DNA of 37,654 nt from Minisyncoccota bacterium (GCA_021734685.1 JAIPIL010000002.1:1-37654), one strand, 5' to 3'. Numbered from the stretch's first letter, positions 7,384 to 37,316 are shown. Notes: generated by a model not told the origin, from the sequence alone. Numbers and translations: made by a program.

Positions 7384-7644
7384 CGCTTCCAAAGGAAGCG
7401 CGCGAAACAACGCAAAACAAAAACGCAAAACAACGCAAAACTTCTTCCACCGTCATTGCGAGGAGTGAAACGACGTGGCAATCCCATCATCCTTGCAGAA
7501 ACCATGAGATTCTTCGCTCCGCTCAGAATGACGGCGGAGTGTCATTCCCACCACCCCTGTCATTCCCGCGAAAGCGGGAATCCAGTTTAGTGTAGTTTCG
7601 CGTCCCAGTTTCGCGTCGTTTCGCGCAAACCACAAAGTGGTTTG
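7384..7644 (+). repeat. Composite palindromic repeat mosaic
   Basis: Hairpin CGCTTCC-AAA-GGAAGCG 7384-7400; ACGCAAAACA-type array 7398-7441; PAL-B 7452-7532; half-site GTCATTCCC 7541-7549; HP-A 7559-7585; inverted (GTTTCGCG) array 7586-7626; hairpin CAAACCAC-AAA-GTGGTTTG 7626-7644. Confidence 0.9.
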
Positions 7645-7672
7645 TTGACATTATCCATAATAAATATAGAAT
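7645..7672 (+). promoter_or_regulatory. Candidate promoter of the receiver-holA unit
   Basis: TTGACA 7645-7650, 16-nt spacer, TAGAAT 7667-7672. TTATCCATAATAA(T)AAATATA occurs twice (7651-7668 and 7689-7709) and could be an operator. Confidence 0.4.
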
Positions 7673-7712
7673 AAAGTAATAGAAGTATTATCCATAATAA
7701 TAAATATATATT

Positions 7713-8087
7713 ATGTCAGAAAACCAAAAAAAAGTTCTCGTAATAGAGGATGAAGAGATAATAAGGGGAATTTTACAAAAGAAGATAGAAAATGAGGGGT
7801 ATCAAGTTGAGATTGCTGTTGATGGTGAAGATGGAATCTCAAAAATAAGAGAAGTTATGCCGGATATAATTATTCTTGATATTGTTATGCCTAAAATGGA
7901 CGGATTTGCAGTTCTTGAAGAGATGAAGAAAGACGAAAACATTGCCAGCATTCCAGTAATCATTGTTTCCAACTCTGGACAACCAGTAGAAATTGACAAG
8001 GTTAAAGAGTACGGAGTTAAAGACTGGATAGTGAAAACAGAGTTTGATCCTCAAGAAGTAATAAACAAAATAAAAGCACAACTATGA
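7713..8087 (+). CDS. Stand-alone response-regulator receiver (CheY-like) protein
   Basis: 124 aa. Acidic pocket VLVIEDEE, phospho-acceptor context IILDIVMPKMDG, conserved SN...K (VIIVSNSG...KDWIVK). Confidence 0.9.
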   Translation: MSENQKKVLVIEDEEIIRGILQKKIENEGYQVEIAVDGEDGISKIREVMPDIIILDIVMPKMDGFAVLEEMKKDENIASIPVIIVSNSGQPVEIDKVKEYGVKDWIVKTEFDPQEVINKIKAQL

Positions 8088-9016
8088 TCGTTTTTTTGTA
8101 CGGAAAAGACACTTACCGTTCATTTGAGAAACTACAAGAGATAATAACTCAACACAAAAATAAATACGGAAATAGTTTGAATATAGAGTTTTTTGACGAG
8201 AAGTCATCTCTTAAAGAGCTTCTTGACTGCAGTAAACAGTTTTCAATGTTTACAAGTAAGCGCCTCGTGATAATAAACGGGGGCTTTTCTGTTTGGAGCG
8301 AAAACAAAGAGTTTTCAAAAAGCATTGATAATTTAAAAGACTCAGATGATGTCTTTGTTTTCAGAGAAGAAGCGTTACTGAAATCAAAAATAAAAATTAT
8401 AGAAAACAAGAAAGAGAAAGGGAAAGTTATGCTTCAAGAATTTTCTATTCTTTCTAAAGAAAAATTATTCAACTGGACAAAAAATATATTCATAAAAAAC
8501 GGCACTGAAATTGACAATGATGCCGTTTCACACATAACAAAAATAGGAGGCGACAACCTCTGGAGAATTAAAAGTGAATCAGAAAAGCTTTCTCTTTACA
8601 AAAAAAAGATAACAAAAAAAGACGCTGAATTTTTAGTAAAAACAGACATAAGTGCAAATATATTTAACACAATAGATGCAATCGGTGAAAAAAATAAAGA
8701 AAAAGCCCTCTCTTTCATCTACGATCACTTAGCAAAAGAGGATCACCCTCTCTACATCTTCTCAATGATTGTTTTCCAGTTCAGAAACTTGATAACCGTA
8801 AAGGATCTGAAAGAAAGAAACACTGAGTACAACGAAGCAAAGAAAAAAAGCGGACTTCACCCCTTCGTCTTTCAAAAAAGCTACAACCAAGCAGAAAAGT
8901 TCACTTTCCAAGAACTAAAAGACCTATACAAAAAACTATTCAGACTAGACCTAAAATCAAAAACAGGCCAAATAGAACCAACAACAGCCCTCCACCTATT
9001 CATATTCGAGTGCTAA
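8084..9016 (+). CDS. holA: DNA polymerase III delta subunit
   Basis: 310 aa. The N-terminus MIVFLYGKDTYRSFEKLQEI is typical of compact HolA. ATGA overlap with the upstream stop. Confidence 0.7.
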   Translation: MIVFLYGKDTYRSFEKLQEIITQHKNKYGNSLNIEFFDEKSSLKELLDCSKQFSMFTSKRLVIINGGFSVWSENKEFSKSIDNLKDSDDVFVFREEALLKSKIKIIENKKEKGKVMLQEFSILSKEKLFNWTKNIFIKNGTEIDNDAVSHITKIGGDNLWRIKSESEKLSLYKKKITKKDAEFLVKTDISANIFNTIDAIGEKNKEKALSFIYDHLAKEDHPLYIFSMIVFQFRNLITVKDLKERNTEYNEAKKKSGLHPFVFQKSYNQAEKFTFQELKDLYKKLFRLDLKSKTGQIEPTTALHLFIFEC

Positions 9017-9022
9017 GCTACC

Positions 9023-9214
9023 GCGCGCGAAACAACGCAAAACAAAAACGCGAAACTACGCAAAACTAGATTCCCGCTTTCACGGGAATGACAAACCCAT
9101 GTCCAACCCGGGGTTGGACATCAGTGAAACTCCGTCATTGCGAGGAGCGAAGCGACGTGGCAATCCCATTATCCTTGCAGCATCCATGAGATTCTTCGCT
9201 TCGCTCAGAATGAC
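9023..9214 (+). repeat. Repeat mosaic with an inverted HP-A copy
   Basis: ACGCAAAACA-type array 9023-9066; inverted HP-A CTAGATTCCCGCTTTCACGGGAATGAC 9066-9092; hairpin ATGTCCAA-CCCGGGG-TTGGACAT 9099-9121; PAL-B 9134-9214. Confidence 0.9.
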
Positions 9215-9234
9215 GGTGCATTAAACAAAAAAAA

Positions 9235-9267
9235 ATGACACAGATCAGACCTGTGCCATTTTTTTTG
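9235..9267. terminator. Bidirectional intrinsic terminator between holA(+) and rpsT(-)
   Basis: ATGACACAG (9235-9243) / CTGTGCCAT (9251-9259), one mismatch. A9 upstream and T8 downstream. Confidence 0.7.
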
Positions 9268-9276
9268 TTTAGAGAG

Positions 9277-9540
9277 TTACTTTTTTGCGGTAATTGATTT
9301 TGTTATTCTTGCTTTTTTTCTTGAAGCGTTGTTTTCTTTTATTATATTTTTCTTAGCTGCTTTATCAATTGCTTTGTATGCTTTAGGAAGAAGTTTTTCA
9401 GCATCTTTCTTCTTGTTATTTGAAACAAGAGTATCTATCTCCTTGATAGTATCTTTCATCTTTCTCCTATAACGCAAATTCAAAACACGACGCTTCTCGC
9501 TTTGTTTTAGTCTTTTTTTAGATGATTTTATATTTGGCAT
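9277..9540 (-). CDS. rpsT: 30S ribosomal protein S20
   Basis: 87 aa, MPNIKSSKKRLKQSEKRRVLNLRYRRKMKD..., basic helical protein typical of bS20. Confidence 0.92.
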   Translation of the reverse strand: MPNIKSSKKRLKQSEKRRVLNLRYRRKMKDTIKEIDTLVSNNKKKDAEKLLPKAYKAIDKAAKKNIIKENNASRKKARITKSITAKK

Positions 9541-9563
9541 ATTTTTATTACTTTATGACATAT

Positions 9564-9592
9564 AAAATAGCATTTTTTAACACTTTAGTCAA
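9564..9592 (-). promoter_or_regulatory. Candidate rpsT promoter
   Basis: On the minus strand: TTGACT (complement of 9587-9592), 17-nt spacer, TATTTT (complement of 9564-9569). About 20 nt upstream of the ATG. Confidence 0.35.
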
Positions 9593-9856
9593 CAAACCAC
9601 TTCGTGATTTGCGCGAAACAACGCAAAACAAAAATGCAAAACAACGCAAAACTTTTTCCACCGTCATTGCGAGGAGCGAAGCGACGTGGCAATCCCATTA
9701 TCTTTGCAGGAACTATGAGATTCTTCGCTTCGCTCAGAATGACGGTGAAGTATCATCTCCCCTCCCTCGTCATTCCCGCGAACGCGGGAATCCAGTTTTG
9801 AAAATTAAGAAATTGAAAATTCATTGAAAATTGAAAATTGCCAAATTGAAAATTTT
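9593..9856 (+). repeat. Composite repeat mosaic
   Basis: ACGCAAAACA-type array about 9610-9655; PAL-B 9663-9743; HP-A with GAAC loop 9769-9795; TTGAAAA-type array 9796-9856. Confidence 0.9.
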
Positions 9857-9904
9857 TATAACTCTTACTTTTTTTAATGTTATTAATTTGTTATACTTAC
9901 TCCA

Positions 9905-10441
9905 ATGATATATTACATAAAAGGAATAATTACTATTAAGGAGAAAGATTTTGTTGTTATTGAAAGTAACGGAGTTGGGTATAAGATTTTTGTTGCTCCT
10001 GAAACTAGAGATCTTCTTGAAAAGGAAGTAACTATCTACTGTTATACAAAAAAAACCGACAAAGAAAATCAACTTTACGGCTTTCCAGAAAAAGAAAACT
10101 TGGAGTTGTTTGAAAAACTTCTTAAGATATCAGGAATAGGTCCGAAGACAGCGCTCGGAATCTCTTCAATCGCCTCAATGGAAGAACTTAAAAAAGGAAT
10201 AGAAGTGGAAGATAAAAAGATAATAAAAAAGATCTTCAAGGTTGGAAAGAAGAAAGGAGAGCAGATTGTTTTTGAGATATCAAGAAAGATGATTCAAGAG
10301 AGCAAGGAAGATGAAGTTTATCAAGCCTTAAAGAGTCTTGGTTTTCAAGAATATGAAATTAACGAAGCGTTAAAAAATACTTCTTCAGAAGATAGCGACG
10401 AAGAAAGAATGGCGGAAGCTTTAAAATATCTAGGGCAATGA
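9905..10441 (+). CDS. ruvA: Holliday junction DNA helicase RuvA
   Basis: 178 aa. MIYYIKGII...VVIESNGVGYKIFV, LYGF, HhH motif ISGIGPKTALGI. Confidence 0.9.
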   Translation: MIYYIKGIITIKEKDFVVIESNGVGYKIFVAPETRDLLEKEVTIYCYTKKTDKENQLYGFPEKENLELFEKLLKISGIGPKTALGISSIASMEELKKGIEVEDKKIIKKIFKVGKKKGEQIVFEISRKMIQESKEDEVYQALKSLGFQEYEINEALKNTSSEDSDEERMAEALKYLGQ

Positions 10442-11691
10442 TAAAAGATGTAATCAGAAAAATAAAACCTGTTGTTAGTTTTTATCACTTTCTATACTCT
10501 TTTGCAGGAGCAGTGTGGTATCGTTTTCCTTCTCGCAAGATTACAGTTATCGGGGTTACTGGAACTAACGGAAAAACAACAACCGTTGACTTTGCTTCAC
10601 GAATAATGAAAAAGGGGGGACTTCGAGTTGCTTCCTTCTCTTCAATCAAATTTGAAATTGCAGGTGAAGAGGAGACAAACCTTTTCAAAATGACGATGCC
10701 GGGAAGAGCGTTTCTTCAAAAGATGATAAGAAGGGCAGTTGATAAAAAATGCGATGTTGTTGTGATGGAAGTAACATCAGAAGGGATAAAGCAACACCGT
10801 CACCGATTCATAAACTTTCAAGGAGCATGCTTCACAAACCTCTCTCCAGAGCATATTGAATCACACGGAGGATTTGAAAACTACCGAAAAGAAAAAGAGA
10901 AACTTTTCAAAAAAACAAAAAACCTACACATCATAAATATTGATGACGAAAACGCTGATTATTTTCTGAAGCATCGGAGCAGAGAAAAGATTCTGTGCAC
11001 CACAAAACAAGAAAAAAAGGAAAATCTTTTAAAGGCAGAAAAGATAGAATCAACCGCTAACGGCACAACCTTTTTTATTAACGATGAAAAATTTACTTTA
11101 GCGGTAGCTGGAAAGTTTAATGTTTACAACGCTCTTTCAGCAGTAGCGATTGCTAGCAGTCAAGGAGTTTCCCTTAAAGACGCAAAAGAAGCGCTCCAAG
11201 AAAAATTCACAGTAAGCGGAAGAATGGAACAAGTAGTCTCCTCTCCGTTCAAAGTTATAATTGATTACGCGGTTACTCCCGATGCCCTTGAACAACTATA
11301 CAAAGAAGTGAAAGAAAACTTTTCAGCAAACAAAATTATCGCCGTTTTTGGAGCTTGTGGGGGAGGAAGAGACAAGTGGAAGCGACCAAAATTAGGAGAG
11401 ATTGCGGGAAGATACTGCGATTATATAATTTTAACAAACGAAGACCCCTATGATGAAAATCCAGAAGAGATCTTAAACGACATTGAAAAAGGAGTTCCAA
11501 AAAACACTGCTTATGAAAAAATAATAGACCGAGAAGAAGCAGTGAAAAAAGCCCTAAAACAAGCCAAAGAAAAAGATATAGTAGTAATCACCGGAAAAGG
11601 ATCCGAACCATGGATGGCCCTATCAAAAGGAAAAAAAATCCCCTGGAGCGACAAGGAAGTAATTAAGAAACATTTGACAATTGACAATTGA
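10438..11691 (+). CDS. murE: Mur ligase, MurE-like (UDP-MurNAc-tripeptide synthetase), short N-terminus
   Basis: 417 aa. GVTGTNGKTTT P-loop, DYAVTPDAL, GACGGGRDKWKRPKLG, TNEDPYDENPEEI, ITGKGSE. ATGA overlap with ruvA. The last codons (LTIDN-stop) lie in a TTGACAA array. Confidence 0.8.
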   Translation: MIKDVIRKIKPVVSFYHFLYSFAGAVWYRFPSRKITVIGVTGTNGKTTTVDFASRIMKKGGLRVASFSSIKFEIAGEEETNLFKMTMPGRAFLQKMIRRAVDKKCDVVVMEVTSEGIKQHRHRFINFQGACFTNLSPEHIESHGGFENYRKEKEKLFKKTKNLHIINIDDENADYFLKHRSREKILCTTKQEKKENLLKAEKIESTANGTTFFINDEKFTLAVAGKFNVYNALSAVAIASSQGVSLKDAKEALQEKFTVSGRMEQVVSSPFKVIIDYAVTPDALEQLYKEVKENFSANKIIAVFGACGGGRDKWKRPKLGEIAGRYCDYIILTNEDPYDENPEEILNDIEKGVPKNTAYEKIIDREEAVKKALKQAKEKDIVVITGKGSEPWMALSKGKKIPWSDKEVIKKHLTIDN

Positions 11692-11770
11692 CATTTGACT
11701 TCTTGTTATTCCCGCCCACCCCTGTCATTCCCGCCCTCCCTTGTCATTCCCAGCTTGACTGGGAATCCAG
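11671..11770 (+). repeat. Repeat mosaic
   Basis: TTGACAA array 11671-11702 (contains the murE stop); half-sites GTTATTCCC 11705, GTCATTCCC 11724; HP-A CAG/CTTGA variant 11743-11770. Spacing 19 nt. Confidence 0.9.
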
Positions 11771-11810
11771 AAATCCTTATGTTTATTAATCAACTAACAA
11801 AAATTGAATT

Positions 11811-12746
11811 ATGAAAATAAAAGAGATATACCAGCTTGCAATTGAAAAAGGAATTGAAAAAGACTTTCGCTCAAAAGAAGAGATTGAAAGTATGCTCCTT
11901 CGTGTCAGTAAAAAATATGAAGCACTGAGCGATGAGAAGAAAGAACTTTTTGACAAAGAACGGCTCACAAATCCTTTCTCCGATACAAGAATTTTATACG
12001 GCGATCCAGAAAAAGAAGTTAAAAAAGTAATGATCGGAATTGACATTGACGGAGAAGAACTTCTTTTAGCAAAACAACTTCAAGACATAGATCTTGTCAT
12101 CTCTCATCATCCACGAGGAGTTGCCCTCGCTGGACTTGATGATGTGATGCAACTTCAGATCGATGTTTTGCATATGTACGGAGTTCCCGTAAACATTGCA
12201 GAAAAACTTTTAAAAAAGAGAATCGGAGAAGTTACCAGAGGACTTTCTCCGGCTAATCACAACCGAGCAGTTGATATGGCAAGAGCACTAGATATTCCTT
12301 TTATGTGCGTTCACACTCCTGCAGATAATTTTGCCGCTCGTTTTGTTGAAGAAAAACTTGAAAAAGAAAATCCTTACTCGGTCAAAGATGTTATCAACTC
12401 TCTTCTAACTGTTTACGAATATAGACAAGCAGAAAAAATGGGAGTTGGTCCAAAGATATTTGTTGGAGGAGGAGAAAACAGAGTTGGTAAAATTGTTATT
12501 ACAGAGTTTACTGGAGGAACAGAAGGATCTCCAGAAATTTATCAAAAACTAGCAGATGTAGGAGCGGGAACAATAATCGGAATGCACATATCTGAAAAAC
12601 ACAAAGAAAAAGCAGAAAAGGCCTGCGTAAATGTTGTAGTTGCCGGACATATGTCATCCGACTCAATCGGAGTAAACCTCTTATTCAAAGAAATAGAAAA
12701 AAAAGGAGTAAAAATATTCCCCTGCGGAGGACTAATAAGAAAATAA
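11811..12746 (+). CDS. NIF3-family (DUF34) dinuclear metal-centre protein
   Basis: 311 aa. DLVISHHP motif, C-terminal GHMSSD/GH pair typical of NIF3/YbgI. Confidence 0.8.
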   Translation: MKIKEIYQLAIEKGIEKDFRSKEEIESMLLRVSKKYEALSDEKKELFDKERLTNPFSDTRILYGDPEKEVKKVMIGIDIDGEELLLAKQLQDIDLVISHHPRGVALAGLDDVMQLQIDVLHMYGVPVNIAEKLLKKRIGEVTRGLSPANHNRAVDMARALDIPFMCVHTPADNFAARFVEEKLEKENPYSVKDVINSLLTVYEYRQAEKMGVGPKIFVGGGENRVGKIVITEFTGGTEGSPEIYQKLADVGAGTIIGMHISEKHKEKAEKACVNVVVAGHMSSDSIGVNLLFKEIEKKGVKIFPCGGLIRK

Positions 12747-12751
12747 TCCCC

Positions 12752-12915
12752 GTCATTGCGAGGAGCGAAGCGACGTGGCAATCCCTTGAACCCCCCCGTC
12801 ATTCCCGCCCTCCCCCGTCATTCCCAACTTGATTGGGAATCCAGTTTTGAATTTTGAATTTAGTATTTTGAATTTATTTAGAATTTGGTGCTTAGAATTT
12901 AGAATTTATTTTTTT
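12752..12915 (+). repeat. Repeat mosaic between convergent genes
   Basis: Single PAL-B arm GTCATTGCGAGGAGCGAAGCGACGTGGCAATCCC 12752-12785; half-site 12798-12806; HP-A CAA/CTTGA/TTG variant 12817-12844; TTTGAAT/TTAGAAT array 12845-12915 overlapping the Elp3 stop. Confidence 0.9.
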
Positions 12916-15066: not shown

Positions 15067-15284
15067 GCATTTGACATTTGACATTTGACTGTCATTCTGA
15101 GCGAAGCGAAGAATCCCATCATCTTTGCAGTCCACGAGAGATTGCCACGGGCTAAAGCCCTCGCAATGACGATGGAGTGTCACTCCCACATTCTTTGTCA
15201 TTCCCGCGAAAGCGGGAATCCAGTTTTGAAAATTAAAAAATTGAAAATTCATTGAAAATTGTCAAATTGAAAATTGAAAATTTT
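15067..15284 (+). repeat. Composite repeat mosaic
   Basis: TTGACAT array 15067-15089; PAL-B with swapped arm types 15091-15170; degenerate half-site 15178-15186; HP-A 15197-15223; TTGAAAA array 15224-15284. Confidence 0.9.
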
Positions 15285-15381
15285 AGTCATTAATTCAAAA
15301 TTACTCAAACTTGCTTTATTGAAAAAGGAGTCAGGTACCTTTTTTAGAAAAATCTAGTATCATAATAATAACAAACATAAT

Positions 15382-15823: not shown

Positions 15824-15831
15824 TCTGCTTA

Positions 15832-15860
15832 TTGACTTAATCCTTGTTTTAGTGTATATT
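15832..15860 (+). promoter_or_regulatory. Near-consensus sigma70 promoter driving the structured RNA and tmRNA
   Basis: TTGACT 15832-15837, 17-nt spacer, TATATT 15855-15860. The predicted TSS, about 15866-15868, coincides with the first bases of the closing helix. Confidence 0.55.
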
Positions 15861-17228: not shown

Positions 17229-17450
17229 AAAATTTTCAATTTGACAATTTTCAATTTTCAAATCCTAAGCACTAAATCCTAAACTCTAAACAAACCCAAA
17301 ATCCAAATGACAAAAATCCAAAACAAAAACACTGTCATTCTGAGCGAAGCGAAGAATCTCGTTTTGAATTTAGTATTTAGAATTTAGAGTTTATCATTTT
17401 AAATTTGTAATTTATTTTTGAAAATTGCCAAATTGAAAATTGAAAATTTT
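17229..17450 (+). repeat. 222-nt composite palindrome inserted between rpmI and rplT
   Basis: Inverted TTGAAAA array 17229-17262; CTAAA(T/C)C array 17263-17291; single PAL-B arm GTCATTCTGAGCGAAGCGAAGAATCTC 17334-17360; TTTAGAAT array 17361-17419; TTGAAAA array 17420-17450. Confidence 0.9.
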
Positions 17451-18326: not shown

Positions 18327-18556
18327 GTTTCCAAAGGAAACACGCAAAACAACGCGAAACTTTTCCCTCCGTCATTCTGAAGGAGGGAAACGACTGAAGA
18401 ATCCCATCACCTCTGCAATCACCATGAGATTCTTCACTTCACTACGCTCCGTTCAGAATGACAGTGGGGTATCATTCCCACCCCCCCTGTCATTCCCGCA
18501 AAAGCGGGAATCCAGTCAATAGTCAAAAGTCACATGTCAAATGTCAATTGTCAACC
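18327..18556 (+). repeat. Composite repeat mosaic in the divergent smpB/argS spacer
   Basis: Hairpin GTTTCC-AAA-GGAAAC 18327-18341; ACGCAAAAC array 18342-18360; PAL-B (92 nt) 18371-18462; degenerate half-site 18471-18479; HP-A with AAAA loop 18489-18515; GTCAA array 18515-18556. Confidence 0.9.
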
Positions 18557-20256: not shown

Positions 20257-20422
20257 GTCATTCTGAGCGAAGCGAAGAATCCCATCATCTTTGCAAAAAC
20301 CATGAGATTCTTCACTTCACTTTGTTCCGTTCAGAATGACGGTGGAATGTCATTCCCAGCTTGACTGGGAATCCAGAAATCAGCGTTTTCAAAATTCAAA
20401 ATTCGTAATTCAAAATTAAACC
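20257..20422 (+). repeat. Composite repeat mosaic
   Basis: PAL-B 20257-20340; HP-A CAG/CTTGA variant 20349-20376; AAAATTC array running up to the ileS ATG (20377-20422). Confidence 0.9.
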
Positions 20423-24102: not shown

Positions 24103-24423
24103 AAATAATTTTCAATTTGGCAATTTTCAATTTTCAATGAATGACCAAATGACCAAATGACCAAAACAACCATTTCTGTCATTCTGAAGGAGTGAAACGA
24201 CTGAAGAATCCCATCATTCTTGTAAAAACCATGAGATTCTTCACTACGCTACGCTTCGTTCAGAATGACGGTGGGGTGGCTCTCACGCCCCCTGTCATTC
24301 CCACCCCCACCTGTCATTCCCGCTCCCCCTCTTGTCATTCCCGCGAAAGCGGGAATCCAGTTTTGAAAATTAAAAAATTGAAAATTCATTGAAAATTGCC
24401 AAATTGAAAATTGAAAATTTTAG
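24103..24423 (+). repeat. 321-nt composite palindromic mosaic
   Basis: Inverted TTGAAAA array plus ATGACCAA x3 24103-24177; PAL-B (92 nt) 24178-24269; half-sites 24294 and 24313; HP-A 24334-24360; TTGAAAA array 24361-24423. Confidence 0.9.
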
Positions 24424-26600: not shown

Positions 26601-26809
26601 TTTTCAATTTCAAACCCCCGTCATTCTGAAGGAGTGAAACGACTGAAGAATCCCATCATTCTTGTAAAAGCCATGAGATTCTTCGCTTCGCTCAGAATGA
26701 CGATGGAGTGTCATTGCCGCCCCCCCCCACTTGTCATTCCCAGCTTGACTGGGAATCCAGTCATCCGTGTTCATCCGTGTTCACATCCGTGTAAATCCGT
26801 GTGTTTAAT
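26601..26809 (+). repeat. Composite repeat mosaic
   Basis: Short inverted TTGAAAA remnant 26601-26614; PAL-B 26620-26701; degenerate half-site 26710-26718; HP-A CAG variant 26733-26760; CCGTGTTCA array 26761-26809. Confidence 0.9.
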
Positions 26810-26819: not shown

Positions 26820-28067
26820 ATGAAAAAAACCCTCCCAAACAATCTCCGCATCCTAACCCTCCCTCTTGAAAACACCCGTGTTGCCACGGTGTTTGTTTTA
26901 GTTAAAACTGGTTCAAAATACGAACAGAAAGAAACCTCCGGAATATCACACTTTGTGGAACATATGCTCTTCAAAGGAACAGAAAAAAGAAAAACCCCTC
27001 TTGAAGTCGCGGAAGAGTTAGACAAAGTAGGTGGAGTTTACAACGCCTTCACCGGCGAAGAGTACACCGGCTACTACGCAAAAGTTAATGTTGATAAGTT
27101 CTCCCTAGCCCTTAACTGGGTCTCAGACATCTACCTAAACTCCCTTCTCCCAGAAAAAGAGGTGGAGAAAGAAAAAGGAGTAATCAAAGAAGAGATAAAT
27201 ATGTACTTTGATAATCCGATGGCCCACTGTGAACTTCTCTTCCAAGAGCTTCTTTACGGTGACCAACCAGCAGGATGGAACATCGCAGGAACAAAAGAAA
27301 CTGTATCAGCAACCACTCGCAAAGATCTCTTAACTTATATGGAATCACAGTATAAGGCGGAAAATACGGTAGTCGTTGTTGCCGGAAACATAAACAAAGA
27401 AAAAGTGGAAGAAGAAGTGGCACAGGCGTTCTCCACAATCAAGACGGGCACCCCTAGAAAAGCACACCCCGTAGTGGAAAACCAAGAAGGACCAGCAGTC
27501 CTAAACTTCTACAAAGAAACTGATCAAACGCACCTCATCTTAGGAGCAAGAGCATTCAATATGTTCAGCGAACACCGCTACTCCCAAGAAGTGCTTGCTT
27601 CAATCTTAGGAGGAATGATGAGCTCTCGCTTGTTCTCAAAGATAAGGGAAGAGATGGGACTTGCTTACTACATTAAAACAAGCATTGATGACAACCCCGA
27701 CACCGGCGTTTTATACACAAGAGCAGGAGTTGAAAACAGCAAAACCGAAGACGCCGTAAAAGCAATAATGAACGAGTATAAAAAAATAACCGAAGAAAAA
27801 GTAACCGAAAAAGAACTAACAAAAACCAAAGAACACATAAAAGGAAAAACCGCAATAAGTCTTGAATCATCAGACTCGTTAGCCTACTTCCACGCAGTAA
27901 ACGAACTCCTAGAAAACAGAACATACACCCCCGAAGAGATCTTCAAAGCAATAGACAGCGTAACCGCAGAACAGATCCAACAAACAGCAAAAAAAATCTT
28001 CCAACCAAAAAACCTAAACCTAGTGGTATTAGGACCACACAAAAAAACAACCCTCCCGTCATTCTGA
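26820..28067 (+). CDS. M16-family (pitrilysin/insulinase-like) zinc peptidase
   Basis: HxxEH zinc motif in SHFVEHMLFKGT. The track start 26634 lies inside PAL-B; ATG 26820 (MKKTLPNNLRILTLPLEN) is preferred. The TGA stop lies inside a PAL-B arm. Confidence 0.9.
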   Translation: MKKTLPNNLRILTLPLENTRVATVFVLVKTGSKYEQKETSGISHFVEHMLFKGTEKRKTPLEVAEELDKVGGVYNAFTGEEYTGYYAKVNVDKFSLALNWVSDIYLNSLLPEKEVEKEKGVIKEEINMYFDNPMAHCELLFQELLYGDQPAGWNIAGTKETVSATTRKDLLTYMESQYKAENTVVVVAGNINKEKVEEEVAQAFSTIKTGTPRKAHPVVENQEGPAVLNFYKETDQTHLILGARAFNMFSEHRYSQEVLASILGGMMSSRLFSKIREEMGLAYYIKTSIDDNPDTGVLYTRAGVENSKTEDAVKAIMNEYKKITEEKVTEKELTKTKEHIKGKTAISLESSDSLAYFHAVNELLENRTYTPEEIFKAIDSVTAEQIQQTAKKIFQPKNLNLVVLGPHKKTTLPSF

Positions 28068-28380
28068 ACGAAGCGAAGCGTAGTGAAGAATCCCAACGAG
28101 AATTTTCAATTTTCAATTTGACAATTTTCAATAAATGACCAAATTTCCAAATGATTTAATTTTAAAACAACCATCTGTCATTCTGAAGGAGTGAAACGAC
28201 TGAAGAATCCCATCATCCTTGCAGAAACCATGAGATTCTTCGCTTCGCTCAGAATGACGGCGGAGTGCCATTCTCACCCCCTCCCTGTCATTCCCGCGAA
28301 AGCGGGAATCCAGAAACCAGTTTTGAAAATTAAAAAATTGAAAATTCATTGAAAATTGAAAATTGCCAAATTGAAAATTA
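28058..28380 (+). repeat. Composite palindromic mosaic
   Basis: Single PAL-B arm GTCATTCTGAACGAAGCGAAGCGTAGTGAAGAATCCC 28058-28094; inverted TTGAAAA array plus ATGACCAA 28098-28176; PAL-B 28177-28258; HP-A 28287-28313; TTGAAAA array 28321-28380. Confidence 0.9.
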
Positions 28381-29440: not shown

Positions 29441-29581
29441 CAAAAATTTTCAATTTGGCAATTTTCAATTTTCAATAAATTTTCAAATGACCAAATTTCC
29501 AAACAATAAAAACAATTCCCAGCGCCTCAATTGTCATTCCCAGCGTCTCAATTGTCATTCCCAGCTTGACTGGGAATCCAG
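29441..29581 (+). repeat. Repeat mosaic forming the left flank of the GIY-YIG gene
   Basis: Inverted TTGAAAA array plus ATGACCAA 29441-29513; two ATTCCCAGCG(C/T)CTCAATTGTC units 29514-29553; HP-A CAG variant 29554-29581. Confidence 0.9.
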
Positions 29582-29894
29582 TAAACCGTCACCATGAAAA
29601 CATACTACGTTTACATTATGGCAAGCAAAAGAAACGGCACCCTTTATATCGGAGTAACCAATGACTTGGAAAGAAGAATATACGAACACAAAAATAATAT
29701 TATAAAAGGATTCACAGAAAAATATAAAGTTCATTATCTTGTATATTACGAAGAAACAAGTGATATAAAAACAGCAATAGAAAGAGAAAAACAAATAAAA
29801 AAATGGAACAGAAAATGGAAGTTAGAATTAATTGAAAAAGAAAATAAAGAGTGGGTAGATTTAACTACTGGATTCCCGCTTTCGCGGGAATGAC
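29554..29894 (+). mobile_element. Candidate REPtron-like cassette: GIY-YIG gene between inverted HP-A hairpins
   Basis: Left HP-A (forward) 29554-29581, right HP-A (inverted, exact consensus) 29868-29894. 341 bp in total. Confidence 0.4.
29594..29893 (+). CDS. Small stand-alone GIY-YIG nuclease family protein (COG2827/UPF0213-like)
   Basis: 99 aa. YYVYIMASKRNGTLYIGVTNDLERRIYEH...KQIKKWNRKWK is the GIY...YIG...R...E core. The last 8 codons and the TGA lie in an inverted HP-A copy. Confidence 0.9.
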   Translation: MKTYYVYIMASKRNGTLYIGVTNDLERRIYEHKNNIIKGFTEKYKVHYLVYYEETSDIKTAIEREKQIKKWNRKWKLELIEKENKEWVDLTTGFPLSRE

Positions 29895-29931
29895 AAAAAG
29901 GTTTTTAAAATTCGTAATTCAAAATTAACTC

Positions 29932-31383
29932 ATGTTCATCACCACCAGCATCGCATACACCAACGCCCCGCCTCACATCGGGTTTGCTTTGGAACTTCTT
30001 CAGGCCGATGTTATTGCAAGATACAACCGTCAACAAAATGTTGCCGTTTATTTTTTAACTGGAACCGATGAGCACGGCCACAAGATTGCAAAGAAAGCGG
30101 AAGAAGAAGGAAAAACCCCCCAACAGTTTGTTGACGAGATAACTGAAAAATACAAACTACTAACTGAAAAACTAAACATCTCCAACGATGACTTTATCAG
30201 AACTACCGATCAAGAAAAACACTGGAAAGGAGTTTACAAGATGTGGAACAAGTTAAAAGAAAGTGGAGACATCTACAAAAAAAAGTATGAAGGACTATAC
30301 TGCGTCGGATGCGAAGCGTTCAAAAGAGAAAAAGAACTGGTTGACGGAAAGTGCCCTGACCACAACAAAGAACCAGAGTTAGTAAAGGAAGAGAACTACT
30401 TCTTCCGTCTCTCAAAATACGAAACCGAGATAAAAAAACTAATCCAAGGTGACACCTTGGAAGTTGTTCCCGAGGGAAGAAAGAAAGAGATTCTTAACTT
30501 TTTAGAGGAAGGATTGGAAGACATAAGTGTTTCAAGAAGCACAAAAATTTTGAAGTGGGGGATTCCCGTTCCTGATGATGACTCACAAGTTCTTTATGTC
30601 TGGGTTGACGCTCTAACAAACTACATCTCTGCCCTCGGATACGGAGAAAACGAAGAAAAACTTGAAAAGTACTGGCCAGCCGACATCCACTTCATCGGAA
30701 AAGACATCTTAAGATTTCACGCGGTAATCTGGATCGGAATGCTTCTTTCTGCAGGATTAAAAATTCCAAAGAAGATACTATCACACGGACACATAACCTC
30801 ACAAGGAAAAAAGATGTCAAAAACACTGGGAAATGTAGTTGACCCTTTCACTATAATAGAAAAGTACGGAGTAGATCCCGTCCGTTACTACCTCTTATCA
30901 GAAATCCCAACATTATCTGATGGAGATTTTTCAGAAAGCCGTTTCATAGAAAAATACAACGCCGACCTAGCCGACGGAGTAGGAAACCTAACCTCCCGAA
31001 TAATCTCCCTAGCCAAAAAACACCCCCCCGTCATTCTGAACGAAGCGAAGCGTAGTGAAGAATCCCATTATCCTTGCAAAAACCATGAGCTTATAGAGGA
31101 GCAGTACCACCAACTAATGAAAGAACTCAAAATCAGCGAAGCCATTGAAAAAATCTGGGAAGTAATCCACCTAACCGACAAGTACATAGAAGAAGAAAAA
31201 CCATGGGAAAAAAAAGAAAACTCCAAACAAGTAGTTGAAACCCTCTTCTCAACAATAAACAAAATCGCAGAAATGCTAACCCCAATCCTCCCCGAAACAG
31301 CCCAAAAAATAAAAAAACAAACAGAAACAAAACAAAAAACCGTATTATTCCCAAAACAACCATCTGTCATTCTGAAGGAGTGA
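29932..31383 (+). CDS. metG: Methionine--tRNA ligase (short form)
   Basis: 483 aa. N-terminal HIGH-type PPHIGF, KMSKTLGN, Cys knuckle CVGCEAF...CPDH. Carries an in-frame repeat insertion and a repeat-derived C-terminus. Confidence 0.95.
   Translation: MFITTSIAYTNAPPHIGFALELLQADVIARYNRQQNVAVYFLTGTDEHGHKIAKKAEEEGKTPQQFVDEITEKYKLLTEKLNISNDDFIRTTDQEKHWKGVYKMWNKLKESGDIYKKKYEGLYCVGCEAFKREKELVDGKCPDHNKEPELVKEENYFFRLSKYETEIKKLIQGDTLEVVPEGRKKEILNFLEEGLEDISVSRSTKILKWGIPVPDDDSQVLYVWVDALTNYISALGYGENEEKLEKYWPADIHFIGKDILRFHAVIWIGMLLSAGLKIPKKILSHGHITSQGKKMSKTLGNVVDPFTIIEKYGVDPVRYYLLSEIPTLSDGDFSESRFIEKYNADLADGVGNLTSRIISLAKKHPPVILNEAKRSEESHYPCKNHELIEEQYHQLMKELKISEAIEKIWEVIHLTDKYIEEEKPWEKKENSKQVVETLFSTINKIAEMLTPILPETAQKIKKQTETKQKTVLFPKQPSVILKE
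31030..31089 (+). repeat. PAL-B left arm plus loop inserted in frame inside metG
   Basis: GTCATTCTGAACGAAGCGAAGCGTAGTGAAGAATCCCATTATCCTTGCAAAAACCATGAG is 60 nt, or 20 codons (VILNEAKRSEESHYPCKNHE). The arm is identical to 28058-28094. Confidence 0.85.
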
Positions 31384-31570
31384 AACGACTGAAGAATCCC
31401 ATCATCCTTGCAGAAACCATGAGATTCTTCGCTCCGCTCAGAATGACGGCGGAGTGTCACTCCCACCCCCCCCTGTCATTCCCGCGAAAGCGGGAATCCA
31501 GTTTGTAATTTTGGACATTGTAATTTGTAATTTATTTGGAATTTGTAATTTTGAATTTGTAATTTAAATT
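31366..31570 (+). repeat. Composite repeat mosaic
   Basis: PAL-B 31366-31447 (contains the metG stop at 31381-31383); degenerate half-site 31456-31464; HP-A 31475-31501; TTTGTAA array 31502-31570. Confidence 0.9.
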
Positions 31571-31598
31571 TTGACTTTTCAAAATTATTAAATATACT
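31571..31598 (+). promoter_or_regulatory. Candidate promoter of pilB
   Basis: TTGACT 31571-31576, 16-nt spacer, TATACT 31593-31598. It shares AAATATACTTAAAAT with the pilin promoter at 34893-34908. Confidence 0.45.
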
Positions 31599-31638
31599 TA
31601 AAATTAAACAATAAAATTATTTATAAAACTCGCATCAT

Positions 31639-33339: not shown

Positions 33340-33604
33340 CAAAAATTTTCAATTTTCAATTTGACAATTTTCAATGAATGACCAAATTTCCAAATGACCA
33401 AAACAACCATTCCTGTCATTCTGAAGGAGCGAAGCGACTGAAGAATCCCATCATCCTTGCAGAAACCATGAGATTCTTCGCTCCGCTCAGAATGACGGCG
33501 GAGTGTCATTCCCACCCCCTCACCTGTCATTCCCGCGAAAGCGGGAATCCAGAAACCAGTTTTGAAAATTAGAAAATTGAAAATTGCCAAATTGAAAATT
33601 AAAC
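33340..33604 (+). repeat. 265-nt composite palindromic mosaic between pilB and pilC
   Basis: Inverted TTGAAAA array plus ATGACCAA 33340-33414; PAL-B 33415-33496; half-site 33505-33513; HP-A 33526-33552; TTGAAAA array 33553-33604. Confidence 0.9.
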
Positions 33605-33608
33605 ATCC

Positions 33609-34655
33609 ATGTTTCTAGATTCCATATCCACTCAAGAAAAGGTAGATTTTGTTAAAAATCTTGCCCTTCTCATAAAAAGCGGAAAACCCGTTAACGAGTC
33701 TTTTGATCTTCTTTCTCGTCAGGCTCGTTCTTCGGTTATGAGAAAGACCCTTGAGAACGCAAAAGAAAAATCAGAGAGAGGAACTCCGCTTCACCAGATA
33801 TTTGAAGAAAGCCCTCACTTTGAAAAAGTGTTCGTCAGTTTTATCAGAGCCGGAGAAGAATCAGGAACTCTTGAAAAAAACTTACTAAACCTTACTAGTT
33901 GGCTTGAAAGACAACACACTCTTAAAAAAGAAATTAAATCAGCAACTCTTTATCCAAAGATAATTGTCACTTTTGCAGTTGTTCTTAGTGCAGGACTTGC
34001 ACTCTTTGTTCTTCCAAACTTAGTGCCGATCTTTGCCACTCTTGATGTTGAACTCCCCCTCGCAACAAGAGTTCTGCTCTACATCTCAAATGTGATGCAA
34101 GATTACGGATTATACATTATCGGAGGATTAGCAGGTTTCATATTTGCGATATACTTGCTCTTCAAACTAGAACCACTAAAAAGACTGTGGCACCGTTTTT
34201 TGTTGATAACTCCCGTTGCGGGAAGTATGGCAAAAGATTACCAACTAACCGTTATCTCCCAACTAATATCAACCCTCTTCCGAAGCGGATTAACAATCAA
34301 CGCTTCCTTAGAGATCATCTCTGACTCAGTAACAAACACAAGATACCAAGACGCCCTAGACCAGATAAGAGAAAGAGTAGCAAAAGGAACAAGTTTCTCT
34401 GAAACACTAAAAAACTACCCTGATCTTTTTTCAGAAGTATTCATATCAGTAGTTGCCACCGGAGAACAAACTGGTTCCTTTGGAGAATCATTTGACTACC
34501 TATCCGAGTTCTTTGCCACCCGCCTAACAGAAAAATCAAAACGCCTACCAGTAGTAATAGAACCACTATTACTGATAGGAATAGGAGTATTCGTATTCCT
34601 AATAGCAATAGCAATAATAATGCCAATATACGAAGTAACAAAAGGGTTGTACTAA
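33609..34655 (+). CDS. pilC: Type IV pilus / T2SS platform protein (PilC/GspF family)
   Basis: 348 aa. Duplicated GspF-type domains (...FIRAGEESGTLEKNL... and ...VVATGEQTGSFGESF...), 3 TM segments. Confidence 0.88.
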   Translation: MFLDSISTQEKVDFVKNLALLIKSGKPVNESFDLLSRQARSSVMRKTLENAKEKSERGTPLHQIFEESPHFEKVFVSFIRAGEESGTLEKNLLNLTSWLERQHTLKKEIKSATLYPKIIVTFAVVLSAGLALFVLPNLVPIFATLDVELPLATRVLLYISNVMQDYGLYIIGGLAGFIFAIYLLFKLEPLKRLWHRFLLITPVAGSMAKDYQLTVISQLISTLFRSGLTINASLEIISDSVTNTRYQDALDQIRERVAKGTSFSETLKNYPDLFSEVFISVVATGEQTGSFGESFDYLSEFFATRLTEKSKRLPVVIEPLLLIGIGVFVFLIAIAIIMPIYEVTKGLY

Positions 34656-34665
34656 ACACCCCCCC

Positions 34666-34870
34666 GTCATTCTGAGCGAAGCGAAGAATCCCATCGTAAA
34701 AGCACCAAATCCAAAATCACAAATCCCAAATAAGCACCAATAACCAAAACCCAAAATCCAAAACAACAATTTGTCATTCCCAGCTTGACTGGGAATCCAG
34801 TTTGTAATTTTGAAAATTTGAATTTGTAATTTATTTGTAATTTGTAATTTTGAATTTGTAATTTAATTTT
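34666..34870 (+). repeat. Composite repeat mosaic
   Basis: Single PAL-B arm 34666-34692; AAATCC/AAATCAC array 34693-34772; HP-A CAG variant 34773-34800; TTTGTAA array 34801-34870. Confidence 0.9.
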
Positions 34871-34874
34871 TTTC

Positions 34875-34902
34875 TTTACAAAAAAAAATTTATAAATATA
34901 CT
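34875..34902 (+). promoter_or_regulatory. Candidate promoter giving a leaderless pilin mRNA
   Basis: TTTACA 34875-34880, 16-nt spacer, TATACT 34897-34902. The ATG at 34909 is 7 nt downstream of the -10. Confidence 0.4.
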
Positions 34903-34908
34903 TAAAAT

Positions 34909-35334
34909 ATGAGAAGAAATTTCACACAAAAAGGATTCACCACCCCCCGTCATTCTGACACCCCCCGTCATTCTGAGCGAAGCGAAGAATCCCATCAAAA
35001 AAACGCTTTCACTATAATAGAACTCCTCGTAGTAGTAGCAGTAATTGCAATACTCGCTATCTTAATCCTTATCCCTTTACAAAACGCCCGTGAAAACGCA
35101 AGAATAACAAAAGGACTTCACTTCGCAGAACAGATCCACCGCAAAATTATGCTAGAAAATGAAAGCGAATACAAGTTTGATGACGCCACTCCAGGAACTT
35201 GGCTCACCGAAGGAGAAACAGTAACAGACTTCTCAAACAGCGGAAACGACGGAACAGTAGCCGGACAAGTCTATGTCCAAGCAGAAGGAGTCCCAGGAAC
35301 AGAAAACCCAGCAATATACTTCGACGGAAACTAA
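34909..35334 (+). CDS. Type IV pilin-like protein with a repeat-expanded leader, ending at the start of a LamG-type module
   Basis: MRRNFTQKGFT-[TPRHSDTPRHSERSEESHQKNA]-FTIIELLVVVAVIAILA. The bracketed part is encoded by PAL-B arm copies (34949-34959 and 34967-34993). The C-terminus ...SGNDGTVAG...NPAIYFDGN-stop resembles the entry into a LamG domain. Confidence 0.8.
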   Translation: MRRNFTQKGFTTPRHSDTPRHSERSEESHQKNAFTIIELLVVVAVIAILAILILIPLQNARENARITKGLHFAEQIHRKIMLENESEYKFDDATPGTWLTEGETVTDFSNSGNDGTVAGQVYVQAEGVPGTENPAIYFDGN

Positions 35335-35336
35335 AA

Positions 35337-35590
35337 CGCTTCCAAAGGAAGCGCGCGAAACAACGCAAAACCCCCCCCTGTCATTCTGAAGGAGTGAAAC
35401 GACTGAAGAATCCCATCATCCTTGCAGAAACCATGAGATTCTTCGCTTCGCTCAGAATGACAACAGGATGTCATTCCCGCGAAAGCGGGAATCCAGAAAC
35501 CCCGCATCCGTCATTCTGAGCGAAGCGAAGAATCCCGTTTTGAAAATTAGAAAATTCAAAATTGATTCAAAATTCAAAATTCAAAATTAA
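35337..35590 (+). repeat. Composite repeat mosaic
   Basis: Hairpin CGCTTCC-AAA-GGAAGCG 35337-35353 (same as 7384-7400); short ACGCAAAAC array 35351-35371; PAL-B 35380-35461; HP-A 35470-35496; single PAL-B arm 35510-35536; TTGAAAA/TTCAAAA array 35537-35590. Confidence 0.9.
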
Positions 35591-35595
35591 TAATC

Positions 35596-36603
35596 ATGTC
35601 TAACTCAATAAACAAAAAACTATCCCTAACCCTCAGTCTCCTCACCCTAACCTTATCCCTCACCCTCGCCTCTCCCGCTTCCGCAGAATGTACTGGAGGT
35701 TCTGTAAACGGTTGGGCTTGGTCTGACAACATCGGCTGGATATCTCTTAGTTGTGAAAACCAAGGAGACGAAGTTGATTACGCTCTTAATATAGACGCAG
35801 GAACTGGACTTGTCAGTGGATACGCTTGGTCAGAAGTTGTTGGTTGGATAAGTTTTAATGAAGCAGATCTAACTGATTGTCCTGAAGGAACTTGCGAAGC
35901 AAGAGAAGTAGATGGCGTTTTAACCGGATGGGCAAAAGTAATTGACACCGACGAAGAAGGAACCTACTACGGCGAGTATGATGAGTGGATCTCACTCTCT
36001 GGAGAAGCCGACGACGCAACAGAGTACGGAGTAGAAGTTGATGATATGGGAAACATCACTGGTGGTTTTGCATACGGAGATCAAACCGTCGGATGGATAG
36101 AGTTTGGATACAGCAGTTCTGGTGGAGGAATTCCAGGAGAACTACCGGGAGTTGGAGATGGTAACTACATCTCACTGCTTGGAAGTGAAAACTGGCCTGA
36201 CAAATTTGATAGCATAACATTTAGTGCATGGGTCTACTGGGAAGGAGTAGGAACTCAAGAAACATCTGGTATCTACGGAATAACGACAGACGAAACATTC
36301 GTTGAGTTTGAAGTTCTCGCTGACGGAGAGTTACGACTTGCCCTCAACGGAAACATACAAACCACAGACGAAGTCATCAAAGAAGAAAAATGGACCCATA
36401 TTTCTTTCACATACAAAGGGGGAGAAAGTAGATGGGCAAGAATATATGTTGACGGAGAAAAGGTAGGCGAAAATCAGTTCAACGCAGGATCACTAAACAT
36501 CCCAACCGAAGACGGATTCCACGCAATAGGAAGCGCCGGCCTAAACAAAAACTTCAACGGCTACATAACAAGAATCCGCCTATACCACAATATTTTTGAG
36601 TAA
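35596..36603 (+). CDS. Secreted protein: four Trp-rich repeats plus a C-terminal LamG (concanavalin-like) domain
   Basis: Signal peptide ...LTLASPASA|E. Repeats GWAWSDNIGWISL, GYAWSEVVGWISF, GWAKV...DEWISL, GFAYGDQTVGWIEF. LamG-like DGNYISL...ITFSAWVYW...WTHISFTY...IYVDGEKV...FNGYITRIRLY. Confidence 0.8.
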   Translation: MSNSINKKLSLTLSLLTLTLSLTLASPASAECTGGSVNGWAWSDNIGWISLSCENQGDEVDYALNIDAGTGLVSGYAWSEVVGWISFNEADLTDCPEGTCEAREVDGVLTGWAKVIDTDEEGTYYGEYDEWISLSGEADDATEYGVEVDDMGNITGGFAYGDQTVGWIEFGYSSSGGGIPGELPGVGDGNYISLLGSENWPDKFDSITFSAWVYWEGVGTQETSGIYGITTDETFVEFEVLADGELRLALNGNIQTTDEVIKEEKWTHISFTYKGGESRWARIYVDGEKVGENQFNAGSLNIPTEDGFHAIGSAGLNKNFNGYITRIRLYHNIFE

Positions 36604-36621
36604 AGAAATGCCAACATTCCT

Positions 36622-36814
36622 GTCATTCTGAAGGAGTGAAACGACTGAAGAATCCCATCATTCCTGCAGAAACCATGAGATTCTTCACTTCACTTCGTTC
36701 TGTTCAGAATGACAGGGTGGCGTGTCATTCTGAGCGAAGCGAAGAATCCCATTTGTAATTTTGAAAATTTGAATTTGTAATTTATTTGTAATTTGTAATT
36801 TGTAATTTAACAAT
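36622..36814 (+). repeat. Repeat mosaic
   Basis: PAL-B (92 nt) 36622-36713; single PAL-B arm 36724-36750; TTTGTAA array 36752-36814 running up to the next ATG. Confidence 0.9.
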
Positions 36815-37114
36815 ATGTATAACCCAACAATAAACATAAGCTGGAAAAAAGCTGTAATCGGCTTAATAATTTTAATAATATTAGCAGGAGTTATTTTCGC
36901 TGTTTATAACATATACTTCGGACCCCCAACTGAAGAAGAGATAGAACAACAAGAAAGAGAAATCCTAGACGCAAAAATACAACAAGAAAGAAGCGCCCTA
37001 GACCAAGCAAGAGAAGACGCCAGAGGAGATGAGTACATTCCTCCAACAACAGAAGAAAGAGAAGAAGACATAGAAAAACAAATAGAAGAACTACAAAACC
37101 TACGTCGCCGATAA
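36815..37114 (+). CDS. Hypothetical small membrane-anchored protein with a charged coiled region
   Basis: 99 aa. TM VIGLIILIILAGVIFAVYNIYF followed by an E/R/Q-rich helix. No family recognised. Confidence 0.55.
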   Translation: MYNPTINISWKKAVIGLIILIILAGVIFAVYNIYFGPPTEEEIEQQEREILDAKIQQERSALDQAREDARGDEYIPPTTEEREEDIEKQIEELQNLRRR

Positions 37115-37116
37115 CG

Positions 37117-37316
37117 GCGCGCGAAACAACGCGAAACTGAAAACGCAAAACAACGCAAAACTTCACCCCCCCCGTCATTCTGAAGGAGTGAAACGACTGA
37201 AGAATCCCATCATCCTTGCAAAAACCATGAGATTCTTCGCTTCGCTCAGAATGACGGCGGAGTGTCATTCCCAGCTTGACTAGGAATCCAGTAATCAGCG
37301 TTCATCAGCGTTTTTC
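37117..37316 (+). repeat. Composite repeat mosaic
   Basis: ACGCAAAAC array 37117-37161; PAL-B 37174-37255; HP-A CAG variant with one stem mismatch (CTAGG) 37264-37291; ATCAGCGTT array 37292-37316. Confidence 0.9.

Follow-up and report, generated by a model that had tools for sequence, protein, structure and literature searches.

Within a 37,654-nt contig of Minisyncoccota bacterium (GCA_021734685.1; contig C4 of the assembly, hereafter the window, always at its full length), most spacers between genes contain copies of an inverted repeat of 80–92 nt, PAL-B, and of a smaller hairpin, HP-A. The contig belongs to a 456-kb assembly of 30 contigs (G000), which represents a reduced genome of about 0.5 Mb. 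Its genes include rpoB/rpoC, metG and type IV pilus genes (pilB, pilC and pilins), and it also encodes a small GIY-YIG nuclease bracketed by HP-A hairpins. An earlier, sequence-only reading of the window had described PAL-B as a single imperfect palindrome with 14 full copies and eight fragments. What that reading missed is the identity of the family: PAL-B belongs with the dimers of CGTC-tagged repetitive extragenic palindromes (REPs) and with the motifs of Ssn nucleases; the window itself contains a gene for an Ssn-like nuclease.

Composition and folding of PAL-B

A profile built from the 14 window copies was searched across the assembly. All 14 were recovered, with E-values of 3e-10 to 2e-27 against their own profile and on the plus strand in every case, which upholds their reported number, start coordinates and common orientation. 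The whole assembly contains 37 full PAL-B copies and 19 partial matches. The eight fragments in the window are also all present, on the plus strand, but most are complete solo units and not broken PAL-Bs. The conserved loop is equally clear, as the word CATCCTTGCAGAAAC has 9 matches at two mismatches or fewer where 0.1 are expected. The window comprises 8% of the assembled bases yet holds 14 of the 37 PAL-B copies and 58 of the genome's 161 units of the form GTCATT…AATC. As assemblies break at repeats, part of this enrichment may be an assembly effect. Among sequencing runs, only DNA metagenomes contain the window sequence, in short unitigs broken at repeats. Clustering around particular genes has been reported for the related Neisseria repeat NTS (see below) too. 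At Rfam gathering thresholds, only a transfer-messenger RNA and one transfer RNA were found in the window, and no family matched at PAL-B.

PAL-B is an inverted dimer of two units. A forward unit, (C/T)GTC-ATT…AAT-CC, is followed by a linker and a reversed unit, GAGATT…AATGAC, so that both tags point outward and both unit tails point at the linker. The linker, CAT-CATCCTTGCAGAAAC-CAT, measures 20–22 nt and is conserved within this genome and in the syntenic close congener G012; by inspection it has no convincing match to the integration host factor site consensus. Each unit opens with a (C/T)GTC tag, continues into an ATT…AAT palindrome whose interior varies and is often rich in purines, and closes with a 3' C. 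The (C/T)GTC-ATT start and the frame GTCATT…AATC(C/T) are common to all arm types, and in nearly all copies the left arm ends in AATCC and the right arm in AATCT. The arms are 26–37 nt long, with a 5-bp outer stem and interiors of 16–27 nt. Six arm types (a, b, c, d, f and g) occur in 10 left-by-right combinations among the 37 copies, 36 of which are heterodimers of unlike arm types; in every dimer the two arms differ in length. Within arms a, b and c, an inner mini-hairpin alternates between GCGAAGC and GTGAAAC (compare 28191–28197 with 33429–33435), a two-sided change from C:G to T:A that preserves the pair. GCGAAGC is an unusually stable DNA mini-hairpin.

The dimers differ in how they fold. 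Ten window copies have two ATTCT-type (CT-type) arms and form a single long hairpin (DNA z = -2.75 to -5.5; RNA z = -3.2 to -6.1). Only in these ten do the outer 10 bp and the inner 12 bp pair, a pairing that had been ascribed to PAL-B in general. In the three GCGAGG/CT (a/c) copies and the one CT/GGGCTTTAGCCC (c/g) copy, pairing runs through GTCATT/AATGAC only (z = -0.1 and -0.8) and no long hairpin forms (z = -0.1 to -1.5). The view of PAL-B as one palindrome gives way to that of a heterodimer, in which roughly one window copy in four is incapable of the long hairpin, and its expected structure as RNA and as single-stranded DNA (ssDNA) is retained by the double-ATTCT-arm copies but not by the mixed ones. 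The further suggestion that each arm is itself a small hairpin is true of arms d and g, which are moderate hairpins when folded alone (z about -2.4). For arms a and c, the predicted shape is the expected one, yet the score is no better than that of shuffled sequences, and arms b and f have no predicted fold. HP-A1 and HP-A2, by comparison, are strong hairpins on their own (z = -5.1 and -4.2). We suspect that the fold energies of the arms may be underestimates, because the model omits sheared G·A pairs and GAA mini-loops (GCGAAGC, GTGAAAC), which are frequent in the arms.

Kinship with CGTC-tagged REPs and Ssn motifs

Two published systems share the plan of the PAL-B units. In CGTC-tagged REPs, the tag is CGTC or TGTC, the stem starts with AT and the tail is short and rich in C (Di Nocera et al., BMC Genomics 2013, PMC3733652). 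They mostly form inverted dimers, often heterodimers with conserved spacers, some of them intragenic, and their families include Neisseria dRS3 and Rickettsia RPE-4/RPE-6; no transposase was known for them and they were never found beside genes of the REP-associated tyrosine transposase (RAYT) type (PMC3733652). PAL-B has the same tag, AT-starting stems, C-rich tail, inverted heterodimeric arrangement and conserved spacer, with some intragenic copies and no RAYT association. The units translated in frame in metG and in the N-terminal part of a pilin-like open reading frame (ORF) recall the Rickettsia palindromic elements. HP-A1 and HP-A2 have the structure by which these REPs are defined (8-bp stem, 4- or 5-nt loop, tail CCA), and in our reading HP-A1, with its 8-bp stem and 4-nt loop, lies within the range of the described families. 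The phyla listed in PMC3733652 do not include Patescibacteria-like genomes.

The second system is that of the Ssn-related motif (SRM), of which the Neisseria representative is NTS, CGTCATTCCCGCGMAVGCGGGAATCYRG (Chenal et al., Nat Commun 2025, PMC11893778). SsnA is described there as a 94-aa GIY-YIG protein that binds NTS only as ssDNA and does not bind RNA. In Neisseria its cut falls 3 nt before the motif, roughly 4 nt 5' of GTC; cleavage needs the three bases before the palindrome and binding needs the C after it. The ssn genes are typically bracketed by the motif in a layout, NTS-ssnA-NTS, that resembles an insertion sequence (IS). At the first base HP-A1 has T where the NTS consensus has C; otherwise the two are identical. 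The SRM pattern given in the paper, HGTCWYN(0-2)YYVSBRHN(0-5)WNVSBRGN(0-2)RNCYNB (PMC11893778), matches the genome 33 times, compared with 0.8 times in shuffled sequences, and 31 of the 33 matches are HP-A1-type units. All PAL-B arms keep the HGTC tag, an AT-initiated palindrome and the C directly after AAT. The positions shared by every arm (GTC and the C after the palindrome) are those that SsnA needs for cleavage and binding (PMC11893778). PAL-B arms and HP-A therefore form a single superfamily, as had been proposed, defined by the YGTC tag, the ATT…AAT palindrome and the 3' C. Unlike NTS, the PAL-B arms are longer, with a 5-bp outer stem and a purine-rich interior, and their host has a very small genome with a very high repeat density; gene-less dimers are not described in the part of PMC11893778 drawn on here.

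The genome encodes two single-domain GIY-YIG proteins, Ssn-1 (99 aa, in the window) and Ssn-2 (92 aa, on contig C12). Their Pfam GIY-YIG matches have E-values of 2e-18 and 3e-15, respectively, with no further domain in either, and the alignment columns Y, Y, G, R, E and N are invariant. Judged by length (about 90–100 aa), by the GIY-YIG domain being the only one and by the predicted catalytic Tyr, Arg and Glu being kept, both fit the traits of Ssn proteins and are putative members of that family (cd10448). Like NTS-ssnA-NTS, these genes for proteins of about 95 aa are bracketed by inverted units on both sides: CT-type arms at Ssn-2 on C12 and at its homologs in the congeners G005 and G001 (78–80% identity), and HP-A at Ssn-1 and at a homolog in G011 that is closer to Ssn-1. 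Upstream of Ssn-2, a type d arm (+) ends in AATCCCAT before the ATG; downstream, the stop codon is followed by AGATTCTTCAC…, a CT-type arm (-). With an arm on each side, the gene sits at the position of the linker. The flanks are c-like(+) and b(-) in G005, and d(+) and GATCC-type(-) in G001. Each paralog class thus appears to go with its own class of hairpin, at three loci each, and Ssn-1 is a candidate partner nuclease of the HP-A class.

Other small ORFs occur in comparable positions. At the G012 ortholog of window positions 29441–29931 (L150, reverse strand), an ORF for a four-helix-bundle protein (PF05635 / TIGR02436) stands in the place of Ssn-1 among AT-rich arrays, and an Avd-like ORF (PF22296) at C12:812-1192 has PAL-B copies around it and terminates within the right arm of one. 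The repeat mosaics therefore host alternative small cargo genes.

The dimer plan extends well beyond this genome. We collected loci with a forward unit, an AATCYCAY junction, a 14–22-nt spacer and a GAKATY junction. The plan with its junctions, AATCYCAY…GAGATT, was found at at least 120 loci in many phyla, against about one that we estimate to occur by chance; among the matches listed are Patescibacteria, Chloroflexota, Bacteroidota, Cyanobacteria, Bacillota, Acidobacteriota, Rickettsia, Burkholderiales and others. In the 96 complete dimers listed, the arms are at least 90% alike in 4 and unlike in 92, and 7 have arms of equal length; z is below -2 for 38% of the left and 27% of the right arms. 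Among dimer-bearing genomes, 34 of 50 encode an Ssn homolog at E <= 1e-8. Outward-pointing tags are present on both sides of 21 of 32 intact ssn loci (about two expected by chance, by our estimate). In many of these loci, the ssn stop codon lies inside TGAGATTGC, which is also the junction of the dimers.

Table 1. PAL-B dimers, solo units and Ssn-like genes with their flanking hairpins (positions are those of the window unless a contig is named)
Feature	Position	Strand	Basis and remarks
PAL-B dimer a/c; left arm a = GCGAGGAG…GTGGC, right arm c	7452..7532	+	profile, arm typing; long hairpin not formed
PAL-B dimer a/c	9134..9214	+	profile, arm typing
PAL-B dimer a/c	9663..9743	+	profile, arm typing
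Solo unit, type a	12752..12784	+	partial profile match
PAL-B dimer c/g, right arm of GGGCTTTAGCCC type	15091..15170	+	profile, arm typing; long hairpin not significant
Solo unit, type c	17334..17360	+	partial profile match
PAL-B dimer b/f, 92 nt	18371..18462	+	profile, arm typing
PAL-B dimer c/f	20257..20340	+	profile, arm typing; DNA fold z = -5.5
PAL-B dimer b/f	24178..24269	+	profile, arm typing; DNA fold z = -5.2
PAL-B dimer b/c	26620..26701	+	no PAL-B between G012 anchors; anchoring uncertain at this site
Solo unit, type f	28058..28094	+	unit scan
PAL-B dimer b/c	28177..28258	+	profile, folding; G012 orthologous site without PAL-B
HP-A2 unit, 12 nt before the Ssn-1 ATG	29554..29581	+	unit scan
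Ssn-1, 99-aa single-domain GIY-YIG gene	29594..29893	+	Pfam GIY-YIG E = 2e-18; HP-A brackets
HP-A1 unit, encoding the last residues and stop codon of Ssn-1	29868..29894	-	unit scan
Type f unit and linker, in frame within metG ORF (…VILNEAKRSEESHYPCKNHE…)	31030..31092	+	partial profile match
PAL-B dimer b/c, overlapping 3' end of metG ORF	31366..31447	+	G012 orthologous site without PAL-B
PAL-B dimer b/c, between pilB and pilC	33415..33496	+	G012 carries f/f' dimer at this site
Solo unit, type c	34666..34693	+	partial profile match
Truncated unit and solo type c unit (fragment 34949/34967) in 5' part of pilin-like ORF (…RHSDTPRHSERSEESH…)	34949..34995	+	partial profile match
PAL-B dimer b/c	35380..35461	+	arm typing
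Solo unit, type c	35510..35536	+	partial profile match
PAL-B dimer b/f	36622..36713	+	arm typing
Solo unit, type c	36724..36752	+	partial profile match
PAL-B dimer b/c	37174..37255	+	arm typing
Ssn-2	C12:1311-1586		type d arm (+) before, CT-type arm (-) after

Genomic context and turnover

Nearly all PAL-B copies are intergenic and usually lie near the stop codon of the left-hand gene. With gene neighbours called crudely from ORFs, 21 copies are co-directional with both neighbours and five are opposite to both, while six lie between convergent and two between divergent genes. The reported association with HP-A is also found: in 11 of the 14 window copies, a same-orientation HP-A follows within 100 nt, at a distance of 8–64 nt, or in 12 if a one-mismatch HP-A2 situated 8 nt after the copy at 37174 is counted. 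This association is not confined to the window, as HP-A lies downstream of 20 of the 37 copies genome-wide, against two with HP-A upstream, and it holds in G012. In 20 of the 37 copies, the next tag begins exactly 8 nt past AATGAC, with the spacer consensus GGYGGRGT. Eight nucleotides is twice the distance between the SsnA cut and GTC (4 nt) and would fit end-joining at cut sites, but we regard this as a coincidence and not as evidence. No T-tract follows PAL-B; GGYGGRGT and another unit are found there instead.

Whole spacers can be composite palindromes (24103–24423, 28098–28380, 33340–33604, 7398–7626 and others). AT-rich arrays of short period (TTTTCAATTT…, GCGCGAAACAACGCAAAAC…, TTGACA…) lie to the left of the PAL-B/HP-A core and, inverted, to its right, and the same arrays occur at the orthologous sites in G012. 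One to three truncated units (GTCATTCCC plus a C-rich 9–12-mer) are stacked before full HP-A copies (11723–11768, 24293–24340, 29532–29581 and others), and G001 has eight truncated CT-type units in succession (L125:1150-1350). Slippage and repeated nick repair are both candidate origins of these stacks.

Among 40 relatives, the dimer pattern was found in G012 (21 copies), G011 (1) and G024 (1) only; being strict, the pattern overlooks dimers whose linker differs, for example one in G001. G012 shares synteny with the window, at 86–92% nucleotide identity, and 12 of the window's PAL-B sites lie in syntenic stretches. G012 carries PAL-B at four of these (7452, 9134, 9663 and 33415), each time with other arm types, and lacks it at five or more. 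Where a compared site has HP-A1 in G000, it has HP-A2 in G012. In more distant congeners, the pilB-pilC spacer is 10–50 nt long and free of repeats. These comparisons of sequences show that PAL-B is gained, lost and homogenised within a genome over a short time scale. The different arms at the four G012 sites support exchange among copies, which the sequence-only reading had proposed and to which the 10 arm combinations within G000 also point. Such turnover argues against a conserved site-specific regulatory role.

Origin and possible mobility of the dimers

PAL-B is a real, non-random element. It is a variant of a known superfamily, distinguished by its long interrupted arms and near-obligate heterodimers, and not a new kind of element. 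As the same arrangement of inverted units brackets ssn genes, we consider it likely that PAL-B is a heterodimer of CGTC-tagged REP or Ssn-related-motif units and the gene-less counterpart of the unit(+)-ssn-unit(-) cassette. The architecture, the conserved contact bases and the co-occurrence of dimers and nucleases suggest the link with Ssn, and PAL-B is probably mobile. We also considered that the linker might be a remnant of the ends of an ssn ORF. What the two have in common is confined to the unit tails (CCCAT / ATGAG), and nothing in the cassettes matches the 14–16-nt linker core; we therefore propose the same arrangement and not derivation.

Several observations weigh against this interpretation. 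The linker has no clear sequence homology with the interior of the ssn cassettes, none of the arm types matches the SRM pattern, and the arms do not fit the 8–9-bp stem and 4–5-nt loop of CGTC-tagged REP families 1–4 (PMC3733652). Recognition by Ssn is uncertain, because arms b and f lack a predicted fold. The match of the Ssn-like proteins to NCBIfam is weak and below threshold. G012 has no Ssn match at E <= 1e-5 despite its 21 PAL-B copies; conversely, G001 and G005 encode Ssn-2 homologs and have no strict-pattern dimer, although G001 has the one with a different linker. We saw no instance of cleavage, excision or insertion. Comparison of G000 with G012 yielded no clean empty site either, as their spacers differ too much for insertion borders or target duplications to be defined. 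SsnA itself was shown to cut DNA only, not to join it.

On this interpretation, when DNA is single-stranded, as in the lagging-strand template or in transforming DNA, the resident Ssn would bind a folded unit and, by analogy with the measurement on Neisseria SsnA, nick about 4 nt 5' of GTC. At each of its two outer borders a dimer would present a unit open to cleavage, one on either strand. If the nicked DNA is then repaired, copied or re-inserted, the element would spread, its copies within a genome would be homogenised and their arms swapped, and the unequal arms would prevent a long perfect palindrome from forming. More tentatively, PAL-B-type heterodimers may be the miniature, non-autonomous form of a very widespread IS-like element that is mobilised by the Ssn GIY-YIG ssDNA endonuclease, through nicking followed by copying or repair, an extension to which we assign a lower likelihood. 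IS200/IS605 elements and their miniature derivatives offer a purely mechanistic analogy, in which hairpin ends are recognised in ssDNA and cut at a fixed distance on the 5' side, and in which an orientation bias is expected from exposure of the lagging-strand template. Their enzymes belong to another superfamily, however, and the cleavable units of PAL-B lie on opposite strands, while Ssn has no known strand transfer activity.

PAL-B could instead act mainly as RNA, as a terminator in 3' untranslated regions or between cistrons, a block to 3' exonucleases or a target of RNase III, as reported for Escherichia coli REPs and bacterial interspersed mosaic elements (BIMEs). The intergenic position near upstream stop codons, the preference for the direction of the neighbouring genes (21 to 5) and the good RNA folds of the double-CT-arm copies (z = -3 to -6) are in line with such a role. 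Nevertheless, we think it improbable. Units also occur within ORFs, a quarter of the window copies lack the long hairpin, and orthologous spacers that lack the element or carry other arms indicate that conserved regulation is not needed. An intrinsic terminator in particular is contradicted by those spacers and by the missing T-tract. The RNA or RNase III route raised by the sequence-only reading is also less likely because the characterised enzyme acts on ssDNA and does not bind RNA (PMC11893778).

Equally improbable, in our estimation, is that PAL-B copies are inert relics spread by general homologous recombination and replication slippage, with the GIY-YIG genes as cargo or chance neighbours. 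The many copies in G012 alongside no detectable Ssn, the other small ORFs (four-helix-bundle and Avd-like) held by the mosaics and the resemblance of the truncated-unit arrays to slippage products all speak for relics. Against them stand the bracketing of two thirds of the intact ssn loci across phyla (21 of 32), the flanking of each resident paralog by its own unit class, and the retention in every arm type of the bases that SsnA needs.

The least probable account, and one to which we give very little credence, would make PAL-B a REPIN, in which a resident RAYT-type (IS200-like, HUH/Y1) transposase mobilises a doublet of REPs: the doublet with a spacer is indeed the REPIN layout (PMC3116915), and two Y1_Tnp (PF01797) genes with palindromes on both flanks exist in the genome, but those palindromes, ATGTCCAACCCGGGGTTGGACAT and CCCGAGGTGAGACCTCGGG, which recur at about 15 and about 9 places, respectively, are unrelated to the GTCATT unit, the PAL-B tag is GTC and not GTAG, and CGTC-type REPs keep apart from RAYT genes, as noted above. 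The two genes (C25:48917-49585 and C22:603-1322), each with its own palindrome, look like separate RAYT/REP-type systems alongside the Ssn-type repeats; one copy of ATGTCCAACCCGGGGTTGGACAT lies in the window at 9099–9121, beside the PAL-B at 9134, and one CCCGAGGTGAGACCTCGGG lies inside the Y1 ORF itself. What PAL-B does share with REPINs and with E. coli BIMEs is the pair of inverted units around a spacer, the intergenic position and a single-copy partner enzyme that presumably acts on hairpins in ssDNA, which for PAL-B would be a GIY-YIG nuclease and not an HUH/Y1 transposase. BIMEs also pair unlike units (Y with Z), as PAL-B pairs unlike arms.

Two published lines meet in this window: the CGTC-tagged REPs, for which the 2013 description had no transposase, and the Ssn ssDNA nucleases, described in 2025. 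The window and its genome place side by side gene-less dimers with the borders of ssn cassettes, two nuclease paralogs that each appear to have their own hairpin class, and rapid replacement of arms between two congeners. Together these features make it a testable question whether Ssn enzymes create and move the repeats. Should this be true, Ssn would be the missing transposase of the CGTC-tagged REP superfamily, including Neisseria dRS3, Rickettsia RPE and many others, and would represent a mechanism of mobility independent of both DDE and HUH enzymes. For the organism itself, the window illustrates that a reduced genome of about 0.5 Mb can hold repeats of this sort over 37 kb in the majority of spacers, in classical operons and inside ORFs.

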